Assembly (NCBI RefSeq): GCF_965229915.1
Contig: NZ_CBDDJZ010000001.1
Span: 4,739,171 to 4,803,170, forward strand
Direction of reading: 5' to 3'
DNA: 64,000 nt
DNA from: Marinoscillum sp.
GTDB taxonomy: Bacteria > Bacteroidota > Bacteroidia > Cytophagales > Cyclobacteriaceae
Below, in pieces: positions 2,273 through 61,412 of the stretch. Numbering within the stretch: position 1 is the stretch's first letter; the number at the start of each line of letters is the position of its first letter. Under the pieces are notes generated by a model. The model was not told the DNA's origin and did not search any database. It saw only the letters and a program-made list of their open reading frames with translations. The translations under genes were made by a program, and so were the position numbers.

Positions 2273-4141
2273 ATGAGATATTTAGGTTACATATTCCTAT
2301 TGCTCTTGTCCTTCAATGGATACAGTCAGTCATCTATCATCGATGACTTACGCGATCAGCTCAAAGGCCCTTTGAGTGATAGTGCTCAGGTAATGGCAAA
2401 AACTCAACTGGCACGAGAGTTAATTTACATTGACAATTCGGAAGCCTACCTTCTCGCACAAGAAGCTATCAGTCTAGCCAATGAAAAAGGACTGGAGCTG
2501 GAGGGAGCATATGCCCTGCGCATACTTGGTGCGGTCATGCGTGAGTATGGATTTTATCTGAAAGGATCCGAAATCCTACTGGACGCAAAAGCTATTTTCG
2601 AGCAGTACGGAGATGAGTTGGGAGTGGCCAACTGCTACCTGTCGTTGGCAAATTTCTACAATTACCTGTCCGATCATGACCTGGCAGTCACCACAGAGTT
2701 AAAGGCTATACAGATCTTTGAAAAATTACAAGCATCGGAGCGCTTGGGGGTGATCTACAATAATATTGGCCGGTCTTACAATGATCTGGGTAAATACGAC
2801 TCAGCGGCATTTTACACTAGAGCTTCGATAGCTGTAAATGAATCCTTAAATAACCAGCCGTTGCTGCAGAGCAACTACCGGAACCTTGGCTTGATTTACA
2901 TCAAAACCAGAAAATTTGACTCTGCTAAAGAGTCTTTTGACAAAGTCATCAAATTGCATAATGAGCTCGGCAACTATTCCAATAAATGGGCTGCGGCAGA
3001 AGCTTATCTTGGACTCGCTAAAGTTTACATGCAGCAAAATGGAAGTAGGGAGCAGGTAGAAAGTAATATCAACACTGCGCGTGATCTGTGTGTGACTCAC
3101 GGATACCTGGATATACTTAAAAATGTGATCCAGACATCTTTCGAGTATAACCAGTCCATCAATAACTATGAGAACATTGACTTGTTGTGGAAAACCTATC
3201 AGAACTTAACCGATTCACTGCTTCAGGTAGAGCGTGAAAACAAAAGATACATAGTGGATTGGTATGAGGAGCGAATTCAGCAAGAATCGGAGATTGCCGA
3301 TTTTACCTTGAAGCTCGGGCGTCAGAAGGTTCAGATTGTTGCATTGATTGTGTTGGTACTTTTGATTGGAATCTCTCTTGCGTTGTTTGTTTTCACTAAT
3401 CGCAGAGTCAGAAAAGTCAATAGACTTTTGAGTCATCAGAAAAAGGAACTAGAGAAGCTAAACCAAACCAAAAGCAAGTTATTCTCTATAGTCGCTCACG
3501 ATTTTATCAGTCCACTTTCCAACGTCTACTCCTTTTCCAGACTGCTGGCTGAGGAACGCCAGATGGACGAATCAGATAAAAAGTTGATCATCAAAGAACT
3601 GAACCAATCGGTAGAGAGCACTATCAGTCTGACCAAAAACCTGCTGACCTGGGCTCGAAACCAGCTGGAAGGCGAAGTGCATAATCCCATTCAGGTGGAA
3701 GTTTGCAAACTGTTACAAACGGTGCTGAAGTCAATACAAAGTCAAGCATCGGCCAAACAAGTGAAAGTAGAGATCCAGTGCCCTGGTGAACTGGAAATCT
3801 ATGCCGACCCTGCACAACTGGAGGTAGTATTTAGAAATCTGATATCCAATGCGATCAAATTCAGCCACCCTGAGCAATCCATCAATATTCAGGTAACCAC
3901 CGCAGAAGGCAGAGTGAAAATCCTGTTTGAAGATAAGGGTATTGGCATGAGCGATGAGGTACAAAGTCAACTCTTCCAGATCAATGAGTATTCGGATGTA
4001 CGTGGTACCGCAGGAGAGAAGGGCACAGGACTTGGACTGATCATCTGTAGGGAGTTTGTAGAGAAGAACAATGGGGACATTTTGGTCAATAGCCACGAAG
4101 GCAAAGGAACTGCCATTCAGCTGTCATTCCCATCCAAATAG
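2273..4141 (+). CDS. TPR-repeat sensor histidine kinase (HisKA + HATPase_c)
   Basis: Signal-like N-terminus MRYLGYIFLLLL, TPR repeats, a TM helix, H-box SIVAHDFISPL, N-box RNLISNAIKF and G-boxes DKGIG and GTGLGL. ATG at 2273 preferred over the ORF-track start at 2216. Confidence 0.9.
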   Translation: MRYLGYIFLLLLSFNGYSQSSIIDDLRDQLKGPLSDSAQVMAKTQLARELIYIDNSEAYLLAQEAISLANEKGLELEGAYALRILGAVMREYGFYLKGSEILLDAKAIFEQYGDELGVANCYLSLANFYNYLSDHDLAVTTELKAIQIFEKLQASERLGVIYNNIGRSYNDLGKYDSAAFYTRASIAVNESLNNQPLLQSNYRNLGLIYIKTRKFDSAKESFDKVIKLHNELGNYSNKWAAAEAYLGLAKVYMQQNGSREQVESNINTARDLCVTHGYLDILKNVIQTSFEYNQSINNYENIDLLWKTYQNLTDSLLQVERENKRYIVDWYEERIQQESEIADFTLKLGRQKVQIVALIVLVLLIGISLALFVFTNRRVRKVNRLLSHQKKELEKLNQTKSKLFSIVAHDFISPLSNVYSFSRLLAEERQMDESDKKLIIKELNQSVESTISLTKNLLTWARNQLEGEVHNPIQVEVCKLLQTVLKSIQSQASAKQVKVEIQCPGELEIYADPAQLEVVFRNLISNAIKFSHPEQSINIQVTTAEGRVKILFEDKGIGMSDEVQSQLFQINEYSDVRGTAGEKGTGLGLIICREFVEKNNGDILVNSHEGKGTAIQLSFPSK

Positions 4142-57462: not shown

Positions 57463-57924
57463 TCAGAACTTCAAATGTCGATTCAAGCTCTCTTCCAGAG
57501 AGATGAATGTCTCCGTGCGTTCAATTCCTTCTACCTTCTGAATCTTGTCATGAAGCACATCTTTTAGGTGCTTGGTATCTCGGCAGTGAATCTTGATGAA
57601 AATGTTGTAGTTACCAGTGGTGTAATGCACTTTCACAATTTCTGGGATGTCCTTCAATTGCTCTACTACTGCGTCATATAAAGATGACTTCTGTAAATAG
57701 ATCCCCATGAAGCAGGTAACGTCATATCCAAGTTTGGAATAATCCATCTGAAGAGTAGTGCCTCTAACCACACCCATCTCTTCGAGTTTTTTCATCCGTA
57801 CGTGTACAGTACCACCTGAAACAAAGACCTTTTTAGCCACTTCCGTGTATGGAATTTTGGCGTCTTCCATCAATAAATTGAGGATTTTCAGGTCTACATT
57901 GTCAATTTCGTAATTTTTACTCAT
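57463..57924 (-). CDS. asnC: Lrp/AsnC family regulator, AsnC-like
   Basis: GTVHVR, LGYDVTCFMGIYL, YTTGNYNIFIK..CR and KIQ...I..TETFI match the E. coli AsnC pattern as I recall it (LGYDVGCFIGIIL, YTTGHYSIFIK). Confidence 0.88.
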   Translation of the reverse strand: MSKNYEIDNVDLKILNLLMEDAKIPYTEVAKKVFVSGGTVHVRMKKLEEMGVVRGTTLQMDYSKLGYDVTCFMGIYLQKSSLYDAVVEQLKDIPEIVKVHYTTGNYNIFIKIHCRDTKHLKDVLHDKIQKVEGIERTETFISLEESLNRHLKF

Positions 57925-58006
57925 CTCAAAAAGTCCTATTTTCTAATAATGCAATATTATATATTCAATTTTAAATGACATCTAAATATTTACCAAATTT
58001 ATTAAA

Positions 58007-58041
58007 ATATTTTTAAAAATATATTCAGTATGTTAATTTTG
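58007..58041 (+). promoter_or_regulatory. Bacteroidota sigma-70 promoter of the tRNA-like RNA with an overlapping palindrome
   Basis: TAATTTTG (TAnnTTTG) at 58034-58041; perfect 16-bp palindrome ATATTTTTAAAAATAT at 58007-58022 over the -33 region. Confidence 0.6.
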
Positions 58042-58079
58042 AATCATCAAACAATCGCAAAGACGTTGCGAGCACATAC

Positions 58080-58228
58080 TGTAAGGTGATGAAATTGGCA
58101 GACATGCCCTCCTGTCTCGGGGGTGGAGATAAGGGATAAATCTCGATCTCACGATAAATTACTCCGGTAATTTATCGTGACCAGAGACTAACTGCTCCGT
58201 GGAGGTTCGAATCCTTCCCTTACAGCCA
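58080..58228 (+). tRNA. atypical tRNA-like RNA, anticodon GTC (Asp), 77-nt variable arm
   Basis: Acceptor TGTAAGG/CCTTACA, then G73 and CCA; D arm ATG-AAATTGGCAGA-CAT; anticodon arm CCCTC-CTGTCTC-GGGGG; T arm GGAGG-TTCGAAT-CCTTC. Confidence 0.75.
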
Positions 58229-58280
58229 TCATTTTTGGGTTAATGTTGTTTATTGTCCAAAGGACTCCTTTGGAGAATCT

Positions 58281-58312
58281 GGTCGAGGTAGGGGTGCCTC
58301 GACCTTTTTCTT
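58281..58312 (+). terminator. intrinsic terminator of the tRNA-like transcript
   Basis: GGTCGAGG-TAGGGGTG-CCTCGACC followed by TTTTTCTTTTT. Confidence 0.85.
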
Positions 58313-58620
58313 TTTATAGGCACCAGATCGTTAACTTGACAACTTTTTTATTTTTTGGTCCTGATCATATCGGATGAAGAATCAATTCTATATATCAATC
58401 TTTCATAATTTGTGATTCTACGGATCAATCCGAAAACCTGTGGTGTAATTGTATTTATTTGAGGACGGGCATTCGTTCATTTTAGGTTTTACAGGCGAAA
58501 ATTGGATTAACGAATAAATGACTGTCTGAGCCTTGGATGTTCTCAATTGATAGTGCGCAAACGAAATGGCGAGTTTCTTTTATTCGCCAATTTTTGATTG
58601 GAAAAGCGTTAATAAATGAA

Positions 58621-58700: not shown

Positions 58701-58824
58701 ACTACCTTGAAACTCAGAGAAGGTTCAGTGCATTTAAGAGAAGAAAATTTCAACCCTGTCTCTCAAGTCAATCAGGCTTTAACTAATAAATATGTAAGTC
58801 GCCCCACAGAAAAATTGCTTGATC

Positions 58825-59039
58825 CCTTCTCAACTTTCTTAATAATTGTTTTTGTATTAGAAGAACTGCTCCGTGGAGGTTCTGCCGTAGGCATTCCTTC
58901 GGAAGAATCCTTCCCTTACAGCCATCATTTTTGGGTTAATGTTGTTTATTGTCCAAAGGACTCCTTTGGAGAATGCGACCGGCAAGGTCTGGTCGAGGCA
59001 CCTGTGCCTGGCTACGCGCCCCGAACCTTTTTCTTTTAT
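58825..59039 (+). repeat. copy 2 of the tRNA-like 3' half, trailer and terminator (attR-like scar)
   Basis: 58864-58882 is identical to 58190-58208, and 58905-58974 is identical to 58209-58278 (70 nt); there is a 22-nt insertion in the T-loop and a degenerate terminator follows. Confidence 0.93.
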
Positions 59040-59092: not shown

Positions 59093-59445
59093 CCTTCTCA
59101 ACTTTCTTAATAATTGCTTTCGTATTAGAAGAACTGCTCTGTAGAGGTTCTGCCGTAGGCATTCCTTCGGAAGAAATCGATCGAAGGCAGGATGTGCGGC
59201 ATGGAGGTGCGTAAGAGTAATCCTTCCCTTAGAGCCATCATTTTTGTGCATGTCTTGACAAACTTGCTTTGTCATGGTCTATGCTGTCAACTTTGTTCGT
59301 CAGCATTAATGTTGGTTATTGTCCAAAGGACTGCTTTGGAGAATGCGGTATGCTAGGTTTGGACGAGGTATGGCGCACGGCTAGTGGCGCACGGCTAGTG
59401 GTTGCATTAGCTACGCCCCGGAACAAGGCGTCCCCACTTTTTTAT
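59093..59445 (+). repeat. copy 3 (more decayed) of the tRNA-like 3' module
   Basis: Shares a 39-nt upstream arm with copy 2 (37/39 identical, offset 268 nt), the same 22-nt T-loop insert, TCCTTCCCTTAGAGCCATCATTTTTG and TTATTGTCCAAAGGACTGCTTTGGAGAAT, with extra insertions. Confidence 0.88.
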
Positions 59446-59723: not shown

Positions 59724-61412
59724 ATGAGTAAGCAACCCTGGTTATCTACCTACCCCGAAGGAGTTCCTAAATCAATTGATGCAGATAAGTATTCGTCACT
59801 TGCCGAGCTGTTCATAGAATCGCGCTCCAAGTATGCTAACCGACCTGCCTATGAAAATATGGGCAAGGTGATCACCTTTGAGGAGTTGGGTGAGCTGTCT
59901 GATCGTTTTGCCTCCTATTTACAAAATGATCTGGGTTTAAAACCAGGAGATAAACTAGCGATTCAGCTTCCGAATGTTATCCAGAATCCTGTGGTGATGT
60001 ATGGAGCTTTAAAAGCTGGTTTAGTAGTAGTGAATACCAACCCGCTCTACACACCATCAGAGATGCGCCATCAGTTCCGTGATTCTGGAGCTAAGGCAAT
60101 AGTGATTTTGGCCAATTTCGCATCCAATCTGGAGGAAATCTTGAAGGAAACAGCTATTGATCACGTAATCATTACCGAACTCGGGGATATGATTGGAGGG
60201 ATCAAGGGAGCGTTGGTCAACTTTGTGGTGAAGAAAATAAAGAAAATGGTGCCCAAGTATCATTTACCGGAAGCGATATCACTAAAGACGGTATTGAAGA
60301 ACTCAAGAGCCGAGTCATTTAAGGCGCCTGAGATCGGTGCTGAGGATCTAGCTTTTCTTCAATACACTGGAGGAACCACTGGGGTTTCGAAAGGGGCGAT
60401 GCTGACCCATCGAAACCTAATTGCGAATCTGCAGCAAATTGAGGCCTGGCTTGGCCAGACCAAAATGGAAGAAGGTCAGGAAATCTTCATAGCGGCGTTA
60501 CCTCTTTATCACATTTTCGCCTTAAATGCACATGCATTACTCCCGGCTAAGCTTGGTGCTAAAAACGTACTCATTACCAACCCTCGTGATATGCCCGGTT
60601 TTGTGAAGGAACTTAAAAAGCATCCATTTACACTAATCACCGGTGTAAATACCCTCTTCAATGGACTGTTGAATACTCCTGGTTTTGCAGACCTGGATCA
60701 TAGCACAATCAAGGTGGCACTTGCAGGTGGTATGGCCCTTCAGCGAGCTGTTTTTGATAAGTGGGAACGAACAACTGGAAAGCGAATAGCCGAGGCGTAT
60801 GGTCTTACAGAAACATCCCCAGGACTTTGCATCAATCCCCTGGCCGAAGGCAACCGAGTGGGTACTATTGGCTTGCCATTGCCCGAAACGGATATCAAAC
60901 TGCTAGATGATGAGGGAAATGAGGTAGCTGATGGTGAAAAGGGAGAGCTTTGTTGCAAAGGACCTCAGGTATTTAGTGGCTACTGGCAGCGGCAGGAAGA
61001 AACCCAAAACTGTATGATCAATGGTTATTTCAAAACGGGTGATATTGCTACAATGGATCCTGACGGGTATTTCAGAATTGTTGATCGTAAAAAAGAAATG
61101 ATTTTGGTATCGGGATTCAATGTGTATCCCAATGAAGTGGAGGATGCCATAGCCTCACACCCAAAAGTACTTGAAGTAGGTGCGATCGGAGTGCCAGATG
61201 CCAAATCAACTGAGGCAGTGAAAGTATATATTGTCAAGAGTGACGAATCTCTCACCGAGCAGGAAATCTTTGATTACTGTAAGGAAAACCTCACCGGGTA
61301 TAAACGTCCAAAGCATGTAGCGTTTACTGATGAACTTCCTAAATCCAATGTTGGGAAAATCTTAAGGAGAATCATCAAAGAGCAGGATGCTAAAGACAAT
61401 ACCTACGATTGA
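59724..61412 (+). CDS. fadD: long-chain-fatty-acid--CoA ligase
   Basis: LQYTGGTTGVSKGAML, EAYGLTETSPG, GYFKTGDIA, VSGFNVYPNEVE, KSNVGKILRR. Confidence 0.93.
   Translation: MSKQPWLSTYPEGVPKSIDADKYSSLAELFIESRSKYANRPAYENMGKVITFEELGELSDRFASYLQNDLGLKPGDKLAIQLPNVIQNPVVMYGALKAGLVVVNTNPLYTPSEMRHQFRDSGAKAIVILANFASNLEEILKETAIDHVIITELGDMIGGIKGALVNFVVKKIKKMVPKYHLPEAISLKTVLKNSRAESFKAPEIGAEDLAFLQYTGGTTGVSKGAMLTHRNLIANLQQIEAWLGQTKMEEGQEIFIAALPLYHIFALNAHALLPAKLGAKNVLITNPRDMPGFVKELKKHPFTLITGVNTLFNGLLNTPGFADLDHSTIKVALAGGMALQRAVFDKWERTTGKRIAEAYGLTETSPGLCINPLAEGNRVGTIGLPLPETDIKLLDDEGNEVADGEKGELCCKGPQVFSGYWQRQEETQNCMINGYFKTGDIATMDPDGYFRIVDRKKEMILVSGFNVYPNEVEDAIASHPKVLEVGAIGVPDAKSTEAVKVYIVKSDESLTEQEIFDYCKENLTGYKRPKHVAFTDELPKSNVGKILRRIIKEQDAKDNTYD

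Follow-up and report, generated by a model that had tools for sequence, protein, structure and literature searches.

What kind of RNA is encoded by the short interval between a divergent AsnC-type regulator gene and a fadD-type ligase gene in Marinoscillum sp. (Bacteroidota), and is it connected with asparagine? The stretch of DNA analysed here, 64,000 nucleotides of contig NZ_CBDDJZ010000001.1, is called the window throughout, and an initial annotation made from its letters had pointed in this interval to a tRNA-like RNA (TLR) of aspartate identity with one base pair of asparagine type. Our analysis shows that the TLR belongs to a conserved, tRNA-derived family that is uncatalogued as judged by ARAGORN, Rfam 15 and the literature. 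The family conserves the recognition set of aspartyl-tRNA synthetase (AspRS) together with the mark for the amidotransferase GatCAB, with the decoding-specific U33 and purine-37 being relaxed. Among genomes, it is strictly nested within the carriers of gatB, with joint loss and decay, and shows a partial complementarity with canonical AsnB.

A family of RNA genes with a tRNA fold

In the window, a complete cloverleaf can be read directly from the sequence, including a variable arm of 77 nt and a class-II-like D stem of three base pairs (Table 1). All three had been claimed in the initial annotation, and the cloverleaf is further confirmed by covariation on 71 homologues. The single-sequence fold of the window copy has an energy of -55.4 kcal/mol with z = -4.4, none of 200 shuffles being as stable, and the copy matches our covariance model R1 with 137.8 bits (E = 1e-42). 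The check by tRNA finders and Rfam proposed earlier leaves the element without a match: ARAGORN detects 0 tRNA genes in the window and 0 in 20 homologous loci, while Rfam 15, searched on the window at gathering thresholds and at E <= 10, gives no match to the TLR and none to the tRNA or transfer-messenger RNA (tmRNA) models. A search of the literature for a description of such a tRNA-like RNA found none. The analysis reveals an abundant RNA gene family, often arrayed and present in phage genomes, that is overlooked by annotation pipelines.

As to the extent of the family, the window genome has a second full copy with 84% identity, and BLAST finds copies in 28 of 41 relatives. Species-level scans (one genome per species) with two short patterns give at least 120 matches each, and among the matches listed are Cytophagales, Saprospiraceae, other Chitinophagales (including Chitinophaga), Sphingobacteriales (Pedobacter and Arcticibacter), and one metagenome-assembled genome labelled as Flavobacteriales. 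Dyadobacter and Algoriphagus are further genera with carriers. Altogether 152 distinct copies were extracted, 111-195 nt long including CCA, with a variable region of 39-123 nt (median 77). Matches to R1 at E < 1e-25 are found in about 110 of the 151 genomes of the order, with up to 17 R1 matches per genome and many strong copies standing in tandem arrays, and a sample of 201 genomes from the whole phylum contains 23 with R1 matches.

The structure itself is supported by the pattern of base changes. In 71 diverse homologues the cloverleaf pairs are formed in 99.5% of cells, and 11 of 24 pairs have changes on both sides; 0 of 500 shuffles reach the observed level, and slid controls give 52-64%. 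Compensatory changes are found in four of the five helices, the arrangement being a 7-bp acceptor stem, a 5-bp T stem and a T loop UUCRANY, and the base stem of the variable arm covaries as well, with pairs of GC, AU and UA types. We regard it as almost certain that the TLR represents a genuine RNA gene family.

The ends of the molecule are less uniform than a single copy may show. Encoded CCA is present in the window copy, as had been noted, but it is not a feature of the family, being encoded in only 29 of 152 copies, while G73 and C74 are found in 152 of 152. Likewise, the 12 tRNA genes of the window genome that we compared (five Leu, three Ser, two Tyr, one Asn and one Asp) all encode C74 after the discriminator, and none encodes the full CCA. 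Because only C74 is constant, as in the genome's own tRNA genes, the encoded CCA of the window copy is a coincidence, and the C74 common to the TLR and true tRNA genes suggests a tRNA-like maturation. The possible extra pair C(-1):G73, also put forward from the window copy, does not hold as a family feature because base -1 varies (C in 72, T in 49 and A in 31 copies).

The variable arm differs from group to group. In many copies, from relatives and viral contigs alike (for example L034, L041, L107, L212 and L217), its loop carries the conserved motif GGGUUGACCAC, often after AUAAUG and before a U-rich stretch, and in the genus of the window a UCACGAUAA...UUAUCGUGA hairpin stands in place of this motif. 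Such exchanges suggest that the variable arms are interchangeable modules, which may have partners of their own. As a separate observation, the 5' strand of the anticodon-type stem (CCCUCCU in the window copy, CACCUCCUU in Sphingobacteriales such as L172 and L175) resembles the anti-Shine-Dalgarno end of 16S rRNA. This resemblance is probably coincidental, the strand being base-paired and covarying freely in phages.

Bases of identity and bases of decoding

For the anticodon-type loop, the counts below come from loci unselected by loop sequence (the search pattern being positions 1-24), comprising 46 cellular and 58 viral copies. G34 is present in 44 cellular and 57 viral copies, U35 and C36 each in 46 and 57, and C38 in 46 and 56, so the GUC triplet and C38 read from the window copy are conserved across the family (44-46 of 46 cellular, 56-57 of 58 viral). 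Positions 33 and 37 behave differently. U33 is found in 32 of 46 cellular and 43 of 58 viral copies, which means that it is replaced in about 30% of copies, and U37, reported in the initial annotation as non-canonical, is found in 41 and 55. That oddity is borne out family-wide, since position 37 is a pyrimidine in 45 of 46 cellular copies, with A never occurring, and in 56 of 58 viral copies, with A in the other two. Since 21 different stem sequences are in use among the viral copies, conservation of the loop bases does not depend on the stem. The idea that the whole context of the anticodon loop is strictly conserved was rejected, positions 33 and 37 breaking the tRNA rules.

At the acceptor end, U1:A72, G2:C71, U3:A70 and G73 are invariant in 71 of 71 homologues, so that U1:A72 and G73, whose constancy had been named as a test, are indeed fixed; in the larger set U1:A72 is present in 151 of 152 copies. 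Aspartate identity consists of G73, G34, U35, C36 and C38 as strong determinants and of G2:C71 as a minor one, and the amidation of Asp-tRNA-Asn is specified by U1-A72, being prevented in tRNA-Asp by G1-C72 and U20a (PMC9976931; for the U1-A72 rule also PMC1635274). Measured against this set, the strong aspartate determinants and G2:C71 are all kept in the TLR family. The TLR has a class II D loop (AAAUUGGCAGA), whose numbering relative to the antideterminant U20a of tRNA-Asp is ambiguous from the sequence.

It is then of interest to compare the TLR with the tRNAs of its own cell, where 39 tRNAs form a full set, including Asp(GUC) and Asn(GUU), and where a tmRNA is present too. With class II tRNAs, and with tRNA-Leu in particular, the TLR shares the 3-bp D stem, the long D loop with G18 and G19, and a helical variable arm; its D loop is almost that of the genome's tRNA-Leu genes, and the U...GU arm junction, the 7/5 stems and the UUCGAAU T loop are common to both. 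Because the D arm is nearly identical to that of these tRNA-Leu genes, descent from a class II tRNA is suggested. The TLR differs from tRNA-Leu in having G73 instead of A73, an invariant U1-G2-U3, a non-Leu loop (GUC) and an arm 3-6 times longer, and, unlike tRNA-Leu, it is missed by ARAGORN and the Rfam tRNA model. With tRNA-Asp it shares G73, G34, U35, C36, C38 and G2:C71, and its loop departs from the loop CUGUCAC of the genome's own tRNA-Asp only at position 37; in contrast to tRNA-Asp, it has U1:A72 in place of G1:C72, no G10, U37, and the class II architecture. The tRNA-Asn of the indirect pathway (with non-discriminating AspRS and GatCAB), on which Thermus, Deinococcus and Bdellovibrio make their asparagine, resembles it in U1:A72, in G73, and in the amino-acid synthesis on an RNA carrier that is proposed below. 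The TLR is however distinguished from tRNA-Asn by the triplet GUC instead of GUU, the variable position 33, the pyrimidine 37, the class II D arm and the variable region of 39-123 nt. It is moreover a separate gene beside a normal tRNA-Asn, and asparagine made on it would have to leave its carrier and not enter translation. Since the triplet is GUC and not GUU, an ordinary AspRS could charge the TLR.

The complete cloverleaf with its GUC triplet may also mean that the TLR is a genuine tRNA which decodes despite its unusual shape, for example a special tRNA-Asp for some conditions or for phages. In some contigs it does stand within phage tRNA clusters, and ribosomes tolerate long variable arms, engineered tRNAs with aptamer-extended arms being active in translation (PMC7590224). 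The loop, however, speaks the other way, with U33 so often replaced and position 37 almost always a pyrimidine. A normal tRNA-Asp is already encoded in the window genome, neither U1:A72 nor the dependence on gatB would make sense for a tRNA-Asp, and such a tRNA, if amidated, would put asparagine at aspartate codons. We hold a decoding role to be highly improbable, and the TLR is best explained, as far as its sequence tells, as a derivative of a class II tRNA that does not decode.

Three other known kinds of RNA were considered and rejected. Allo-tRNAs share with the TLR long variable arms, unexpected anticodons and discovery by genome mining, and they are described as having 8/4 or 9/3 acceptor/T stems and as active in decoding (PMC5389517); the TLR has 7/5 stems supported by covariation, a far larger arm, and a loop of non-decoding look. 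For tmRNA, the pair 3:70 is U3:A70 and not G3:U70, there is no match to the Rfam tmRNA models, and the genome has a tmRNA of its own. A Y-RNA-like RNA is unfit in structure and has no Rfam match.

The gatB profile and the supply of asparagine

The presence of gatB was scored with TIGR00133 in a set of 55 genomes of the order, among which 31 are carriers of the TLR. All 31 carriers have gatB, and outside the order it is found in 17 of 17 carriers and in 2 of 19 non-carriers, giving 48 of 48 carriers tested. The correlation with gatCAB that the initial annotation had called for is thus found, as judged by gatB, and gatB and the TLR are lost together. Each of the refuting conditions named in that annotation that can be addressed by computation has been withstood. 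In the family of the window genome, the non-carriers G007, G008, G009, G013, G015 and G023 are all without gatB, and the one discordant genome, G005, is 63% complete. The two are absent together from at least six distinct lineages, which belong to four families. Among genomes having both asparaginyl-tRNA synthetase (AsnRS) and glutaminyl-tRNA synthetase (GlnRS), gatB and the TLR are both present in 15 and both absent in 6. Three non-carriers with gatB (G025, G027 and G044) are missing GlnRS and therefore need GatCAB for translation anyway. The loss can also be seen at the syntenic site, from the AsnC-type gene to fadD, where the TLR is decayed to 14-40 bits in G007, G008, G009 and G015. Some functional dependence of the TLR on GatCAB is in our judgement very probable.

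A profile of this kind might still be a coincidence as far as asparagine is concerned, the TLR being a tRNA-derived structural RNA or an integration target whose co-distribution with gatCAB comes from shared ancestry and from joint loss in reduced genomes. The genomes, being related, cannot be counted as independent samples, and the members of the genus without gatB are the smaller genomes; 3' fragments and relics near intact copies resemble remnants of tRNA integration sites, and the AsnC-type gene stays when the TLR goes. Against such a coincidence, the co-absence recurs in the separate lineages and families counted above, 0 of 48 carriers are without gatB, and AspRS and GatCAB read precisely the bases that the TLR has kept. 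We consider this explanation quite unlikely.

If GatCAB is the partner, the question is what the cell would gain from it. Of 35 genomes tested, 32 have AsnRS, with the two least complete assemblies among the other three, and 2 have AsnA. GlnRS is present in the window genome and all its congeners. Because both synthetases are present, GatCAB is not needed in this genus for charging tRNA-Gln or tRNA-Asn for use in translation. In 7 of 9 genomes without gatB there is a protein of about 555 aa matching only positions 1-385 of TIGR01536, and the one in G007, with 932 bits on NF006949 (cut-off 499), is identified as a canonical AsnB, while only 3-4 of the 31 carriers have a canonical-type AsnB of this length.

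The window genome itself has AsnRS, GlnRS, gatB and one AspRS, which is of bacterial type with 588 aa; no second AspRS was found in this genome, and by profile search AsnA is absent from it. Its only AsnB-family protein has 629 aa and scores 332 bits with NF006949, under the 499-bit cut-off; the gene (C1:2113248-2115137) is located between dps and an NlpC/P60 gene, and not in a polysaccharide cluster. As a housekeeping asparagine synthetase this protein is disfavoured, being below the cut-off and resembling amidotransferases of other pathways, and its substrate matters because it bears on asparagine synthesis without the TLR. Of 547 bacterial genera, 18, including some Bacteroidetes, have been reported to combine AsnRS, GlnRS and GatCAB without an asparagine synthetase, which was explained by asparagine synthesis on tRNA-Asn (PMC4206432). 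With neither AsnA nor canonical AsnB, the background of the window genome is this genotype.

A route that would join these observations may be proposed as follows. The TLR transcript would be matured like a tRNA, with C74 encoded as in the true tRNA genes of the genome, and the cell's single bacterial-type AspRS would load it with aspartate by reading G34, U35, C36, C38 and G73. GatCAB would accept the Asp-TLR through U1:A72, the tRNA-Asn mark absent from tRNA-Asp, and would convert aspartate to asparagine. The changes in the loop, and perhaps the giant arm, would keep the Asn-TLR(GUC) off the ribosome, so that aspartate codons are not misread. Asparagine would then be released or handed on, for example for AsnRS or another acceptor, which would provide a supply in cells that have AsnRS and GlnRS while lacking both AsnA and a canonical AsnB, and the divergent AsnC-type regulator would probably tune TLR transcription to this supply. 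We regard this as the best of the explanations considered, and for the core of the route, namely charging by AspRS, amidation by GatCAB and exclusion from the ribosome, the chances appear to us evenly balanced. The wider proposal, that a dedicated, translation-excluded tRNA derivative serves Bacteroidota and phages as a workbench of asparagine biosynthesis under AsnC-type regulation, with asparagine released for AsnRS, is made tentatively, being plausible but falling somewhat short of an even chance.

Several points weigh against this route. G10 is a minor aspartate determinant, and the TLR family mostly has A or U there (A in 95, U in 47 and G in 10 copies); G1:C72, which helps the E. coli AspRS to position the 3' end, is replaced by U1:A72; and 12 of 156 cellular copies, belonging to a few clades, have A, C or U in place of G34. 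Of the gatB-positive non-carriers only three were scored for GlnRS, about ten others lying outside the test, and the carriers G002, G006 and G012 also have canonical-type AsnB. The co-loss of the TLR and gatB could partly reflect genome reduction, G007-G009 being the smaller genomes of the genus. The AsnC-type gene is retained at 88-96% identity in close relatives without the TLR (G007, G008, G009, G013 and G015), and the benefit that a phage would have from an asparagine-making scaffold is not obvious. To our knowledge there is no enzyme that releases asparagine from a TLR. Finally, the route known for bacteria with AsnRS, GlnRS and GatCAB is that of a non-discriminating AspRS acting on ordinary tRNA-Asn (PMC4206432). 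This classical route could operate here as well, making the TLR unnecessary for asparagine synthesis.

Another explanation for the same conserved bases is that the TLR is a regulator, sensor or decoy, which binds AspRS and/or GatCAB or reports its own charging with aspartate or asparagine, adjusting amide amino-acid metabolism or translation with no productive route to asparagine. The conservation of the AspRS and GatCAB bases, the co-occurrence with gatB and the linkage to the AsnC-type gene fit it equally well, and the large conserved internal loop (GGAUAAA / CUAAC) together with the GGGUUGACCAC motif look like sites for extra partners. On the other hand, arrays of up to 17 matches and carriage by phages suggest a demand for amount and not for signalling, a pattern complementary to canonical AsnB is expected of a biosynthetic alternative, and the short-armed phage copies are without the internal-loop motifs. 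A purely regulatory role is accordingly thought unlikely, if worth keeping in mind.

Were the asparagine workbench real, it would be a new use of the tRNA scaffold, with the synthetase and amidotransferase marks alone being kept, since the tRNAs on which amino acids are known to be made (Asn, Gln, Cys and Sec) all go on to bring the product to the ribosome. The TLR would be the first RNA to serve amino-acid metabolism chiefly as a scaffold, much like a cofactor, and its copies in phages would count as RNA auxiliary metabolic genes. The retention of GatCAB by many Bacteroidota that have AsnRS and GlnRS would be explained as well, and the apparent gap of asparagine synthesis in genomes without AsnA or canonical AsnB would be filled.

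Neighbouring genes, phage copies and flanking signals

Table 1. The TLR of the window, its parts, and the features around it (positions are those of the window)
Feature	Position	Strand	Description
TLR, full cloverleaf, 149 nt	58080-58228	+	direct sequence reading
TLR acceptor stem	58080-58086 / 58218-58224	+	UGUAAGG / CCUUACA; then U8 G9
TLR D arm	58089-58105	+	3-bp stem AUG/CAU, 11-nt loop AAAUUGGCAGA
TLR anticodon-type arm	58107-58123	+	5-bp stem CCCUC/GGGGG
TLR seven-base loop	58112-58118	+	CUGUCUC (G34 U35 C36 U37 C38)
TLR giant variable region, 77 nt	58124-58200	+	
Variable-region base stem	58125-58128 / 58195-58198	+	GGAG/CUCC
Variable-region internal loop	between base stem and distal hairpin	+	AUAAGGGAUAAA / CUAACUG
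Variable-region distal hairpin	58149-58162 / 58167-58180	+	perfect, 14 bp
TLR T arm	58201-58217	+	GGAGG-UUCGAAU-CCUUC
G73	58225	+	
C74-C75-A76	58226-58228	+	
Bacteroidota-type -7 box	58034-58041	+	TAATTTTG (TAnnTTTG); 39 nt before mature 5' end
3' trailer motif, conserved	58232-58254	+	TTTTTGGGTTAATGTTGTTTATT; in window genome only 3' of TLR copies; recurs in other genera
Terminator-like GC-rich hairpin	58281-58315	+	GGTCGAGG-TAGGGGTG-CCTCGACC, then T-run
Decayed TLR relic	58793-58922	+	R1 16.4 bits; repeat families D1-D4
Second TLR relic, more decayed	59140-59235	+	R1 4.9 bits; repeat families D2-D4
AsnC-type (Lrp/AsnC family) regulator gene, 153 aa	57463-57924	-	divergent from TLR gene, upstream of sufBCD
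fadD-type long-chain-fatty-acid--CoA ligase gene	59724-61412	+	NCBIfam FadD 808 bits, under 884-bit cut-off

For the neighbours, the open reading frames (ORFs) of 140 TLR loci were clustered, and 126 of the loci have enough flank for an upstream count. The AsnC-type cluster is the divergent upstream neighbour in 86 of these 126, with a median gap of 153 nt, so that the linkage to asnC, which had been suggested as worth checking across Bacteroidota, is conserved. SufB comes next after the AsnC-type gene in 47 loci, and in the window sufB, sufC and sufD follow on the minus strand beyond it. The remaining 40 loci have other neighbours, and some of them at least are additional copies, including the second copy of the window genome.

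The protein of the window has the Pfam domains HTH_AsnC-type and AsnC_trans_reg, and its best NCBIfam match is AsnC with 174 bits, under the 227-bit cut-off; as regards the AsnC orthologue named in the initial annotation, membership in the Lrp/AsnC family and the divergent orientation stand, but the assignment to AsnC proper stays below the threshold. Joint loss of this gene and the TLR is rejected, the gene being retained in close relatives without the TLR, and because it is kept there the AsnC-type protein has other targets too. A canonical asnB adjoining the AsnC-type gene in non-carriers is also rejected, the two lying on different contigs. In E. coli, asnC is divergent from asnA, and the likeness consists in an AsnC-type gene divergent from a gene proposed to make asparagine. 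The present case differs from that pair in that the partner is an RNA gene and that the regulator is below the NCBIfam AsnC cut-off and kept where the TLR is lost, and the 'asnA position' of the TLR is an analogy with E. coli and no finding.

The gene on the other side brings in a further explanation, that the TLR is a donor of aspartate or asparagine outside translation, to a lipid, cell-wall precursor, peptide or protein, and not for asparagine supply. Aminoacyl-tRNAs serve as donors for MprF, Fem transferases and cyclodipeptide synthases, and a non-decoding loop beside an intact acceptor end and T arm would suit such a function, as would the dependence on gatB; moreover, an acyl-CoA ligase gene of FadD type is found downstream on the same strand in 28 loci. 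This linkage is however a minority pattern that survives where the TLR has decayed, no transferase gene is a conserved neighbour in the 140 loci, and the complementarity with AsnB points to free asparagine. A donor role is in our view decidedly improbable.

The family is also found in viruses, with 78 IMG/VR viral contigs carrying the 5' pattern of the TLR; blastn of two phage copies against GenBank phage records gives no match. In 14 viral loci there are at least three ordinary tRNA genes, some TLR copies directly abutting a tRNA gene, and in the larger phage contigs the TLR is embedded in tRNA clusters. In 26 contigs of uncultivated phages the large terminase gene (phrog_6681) lies downstream of the TLR at a distance of about 450 nt, DnaB-type and nuclease genes are found upstream, and in these terminase-type contigs (among L209-L286) the TLR stands after a small conserved ORF of about 100 aa that has no PHROG match. 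In some phages the arm of the TLR is short, measuring about 20 nt, and for this reason the giant arm is not essential to the family.

Concerning the flanks, the initial annotation had given the TLR its own promoter and terminator. Both sequence elements are present, while promoter action is only inferred. An exact TAnnTTTG is found within 60 nt upstream in 78 of 151 family members, compared with 6 of 151 downstream, with a peak at 35-39 nt before the mature 5' end, and the box may well act as a promoter. Because it is enriched upstream, the TLR copies are usually separate transcription units. The same terminator-like hairpin is also located 3' of the second genomic copy, and in relatives it shows a compensatory change (GGTCGTGG/CCACGACC). 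Where the TLR body has decayed in relatives (L205 at 3160-3230, L206, L207 and L208), the trailer TTTTTGGGTTAATGTTGTTTATT is 100% conserved and the hairpin kept, and for this reason trailer and hairpin seem to be under a constraint of their own. They may represent a signal for processing, a small RNA, or a site from which the fadD gene downstream is controlled.

The spacer before fadD, 1.5 kb long and poor in ORFs, contains the two relics of Table 1, each with a T-loop insertion and each followed by a full or partial copy of the trailer. The first keeps the acceptor ends and the T arm, has lost the D and anticodon arms, and has a T-loop insertion of 26 nt. The two relics are probably the remains of a former tandem array. 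In the same spacer, a 14-mer, TGGCGCACGGCTAG, is perfectly duplicated in tandem at positions 59371-59398.

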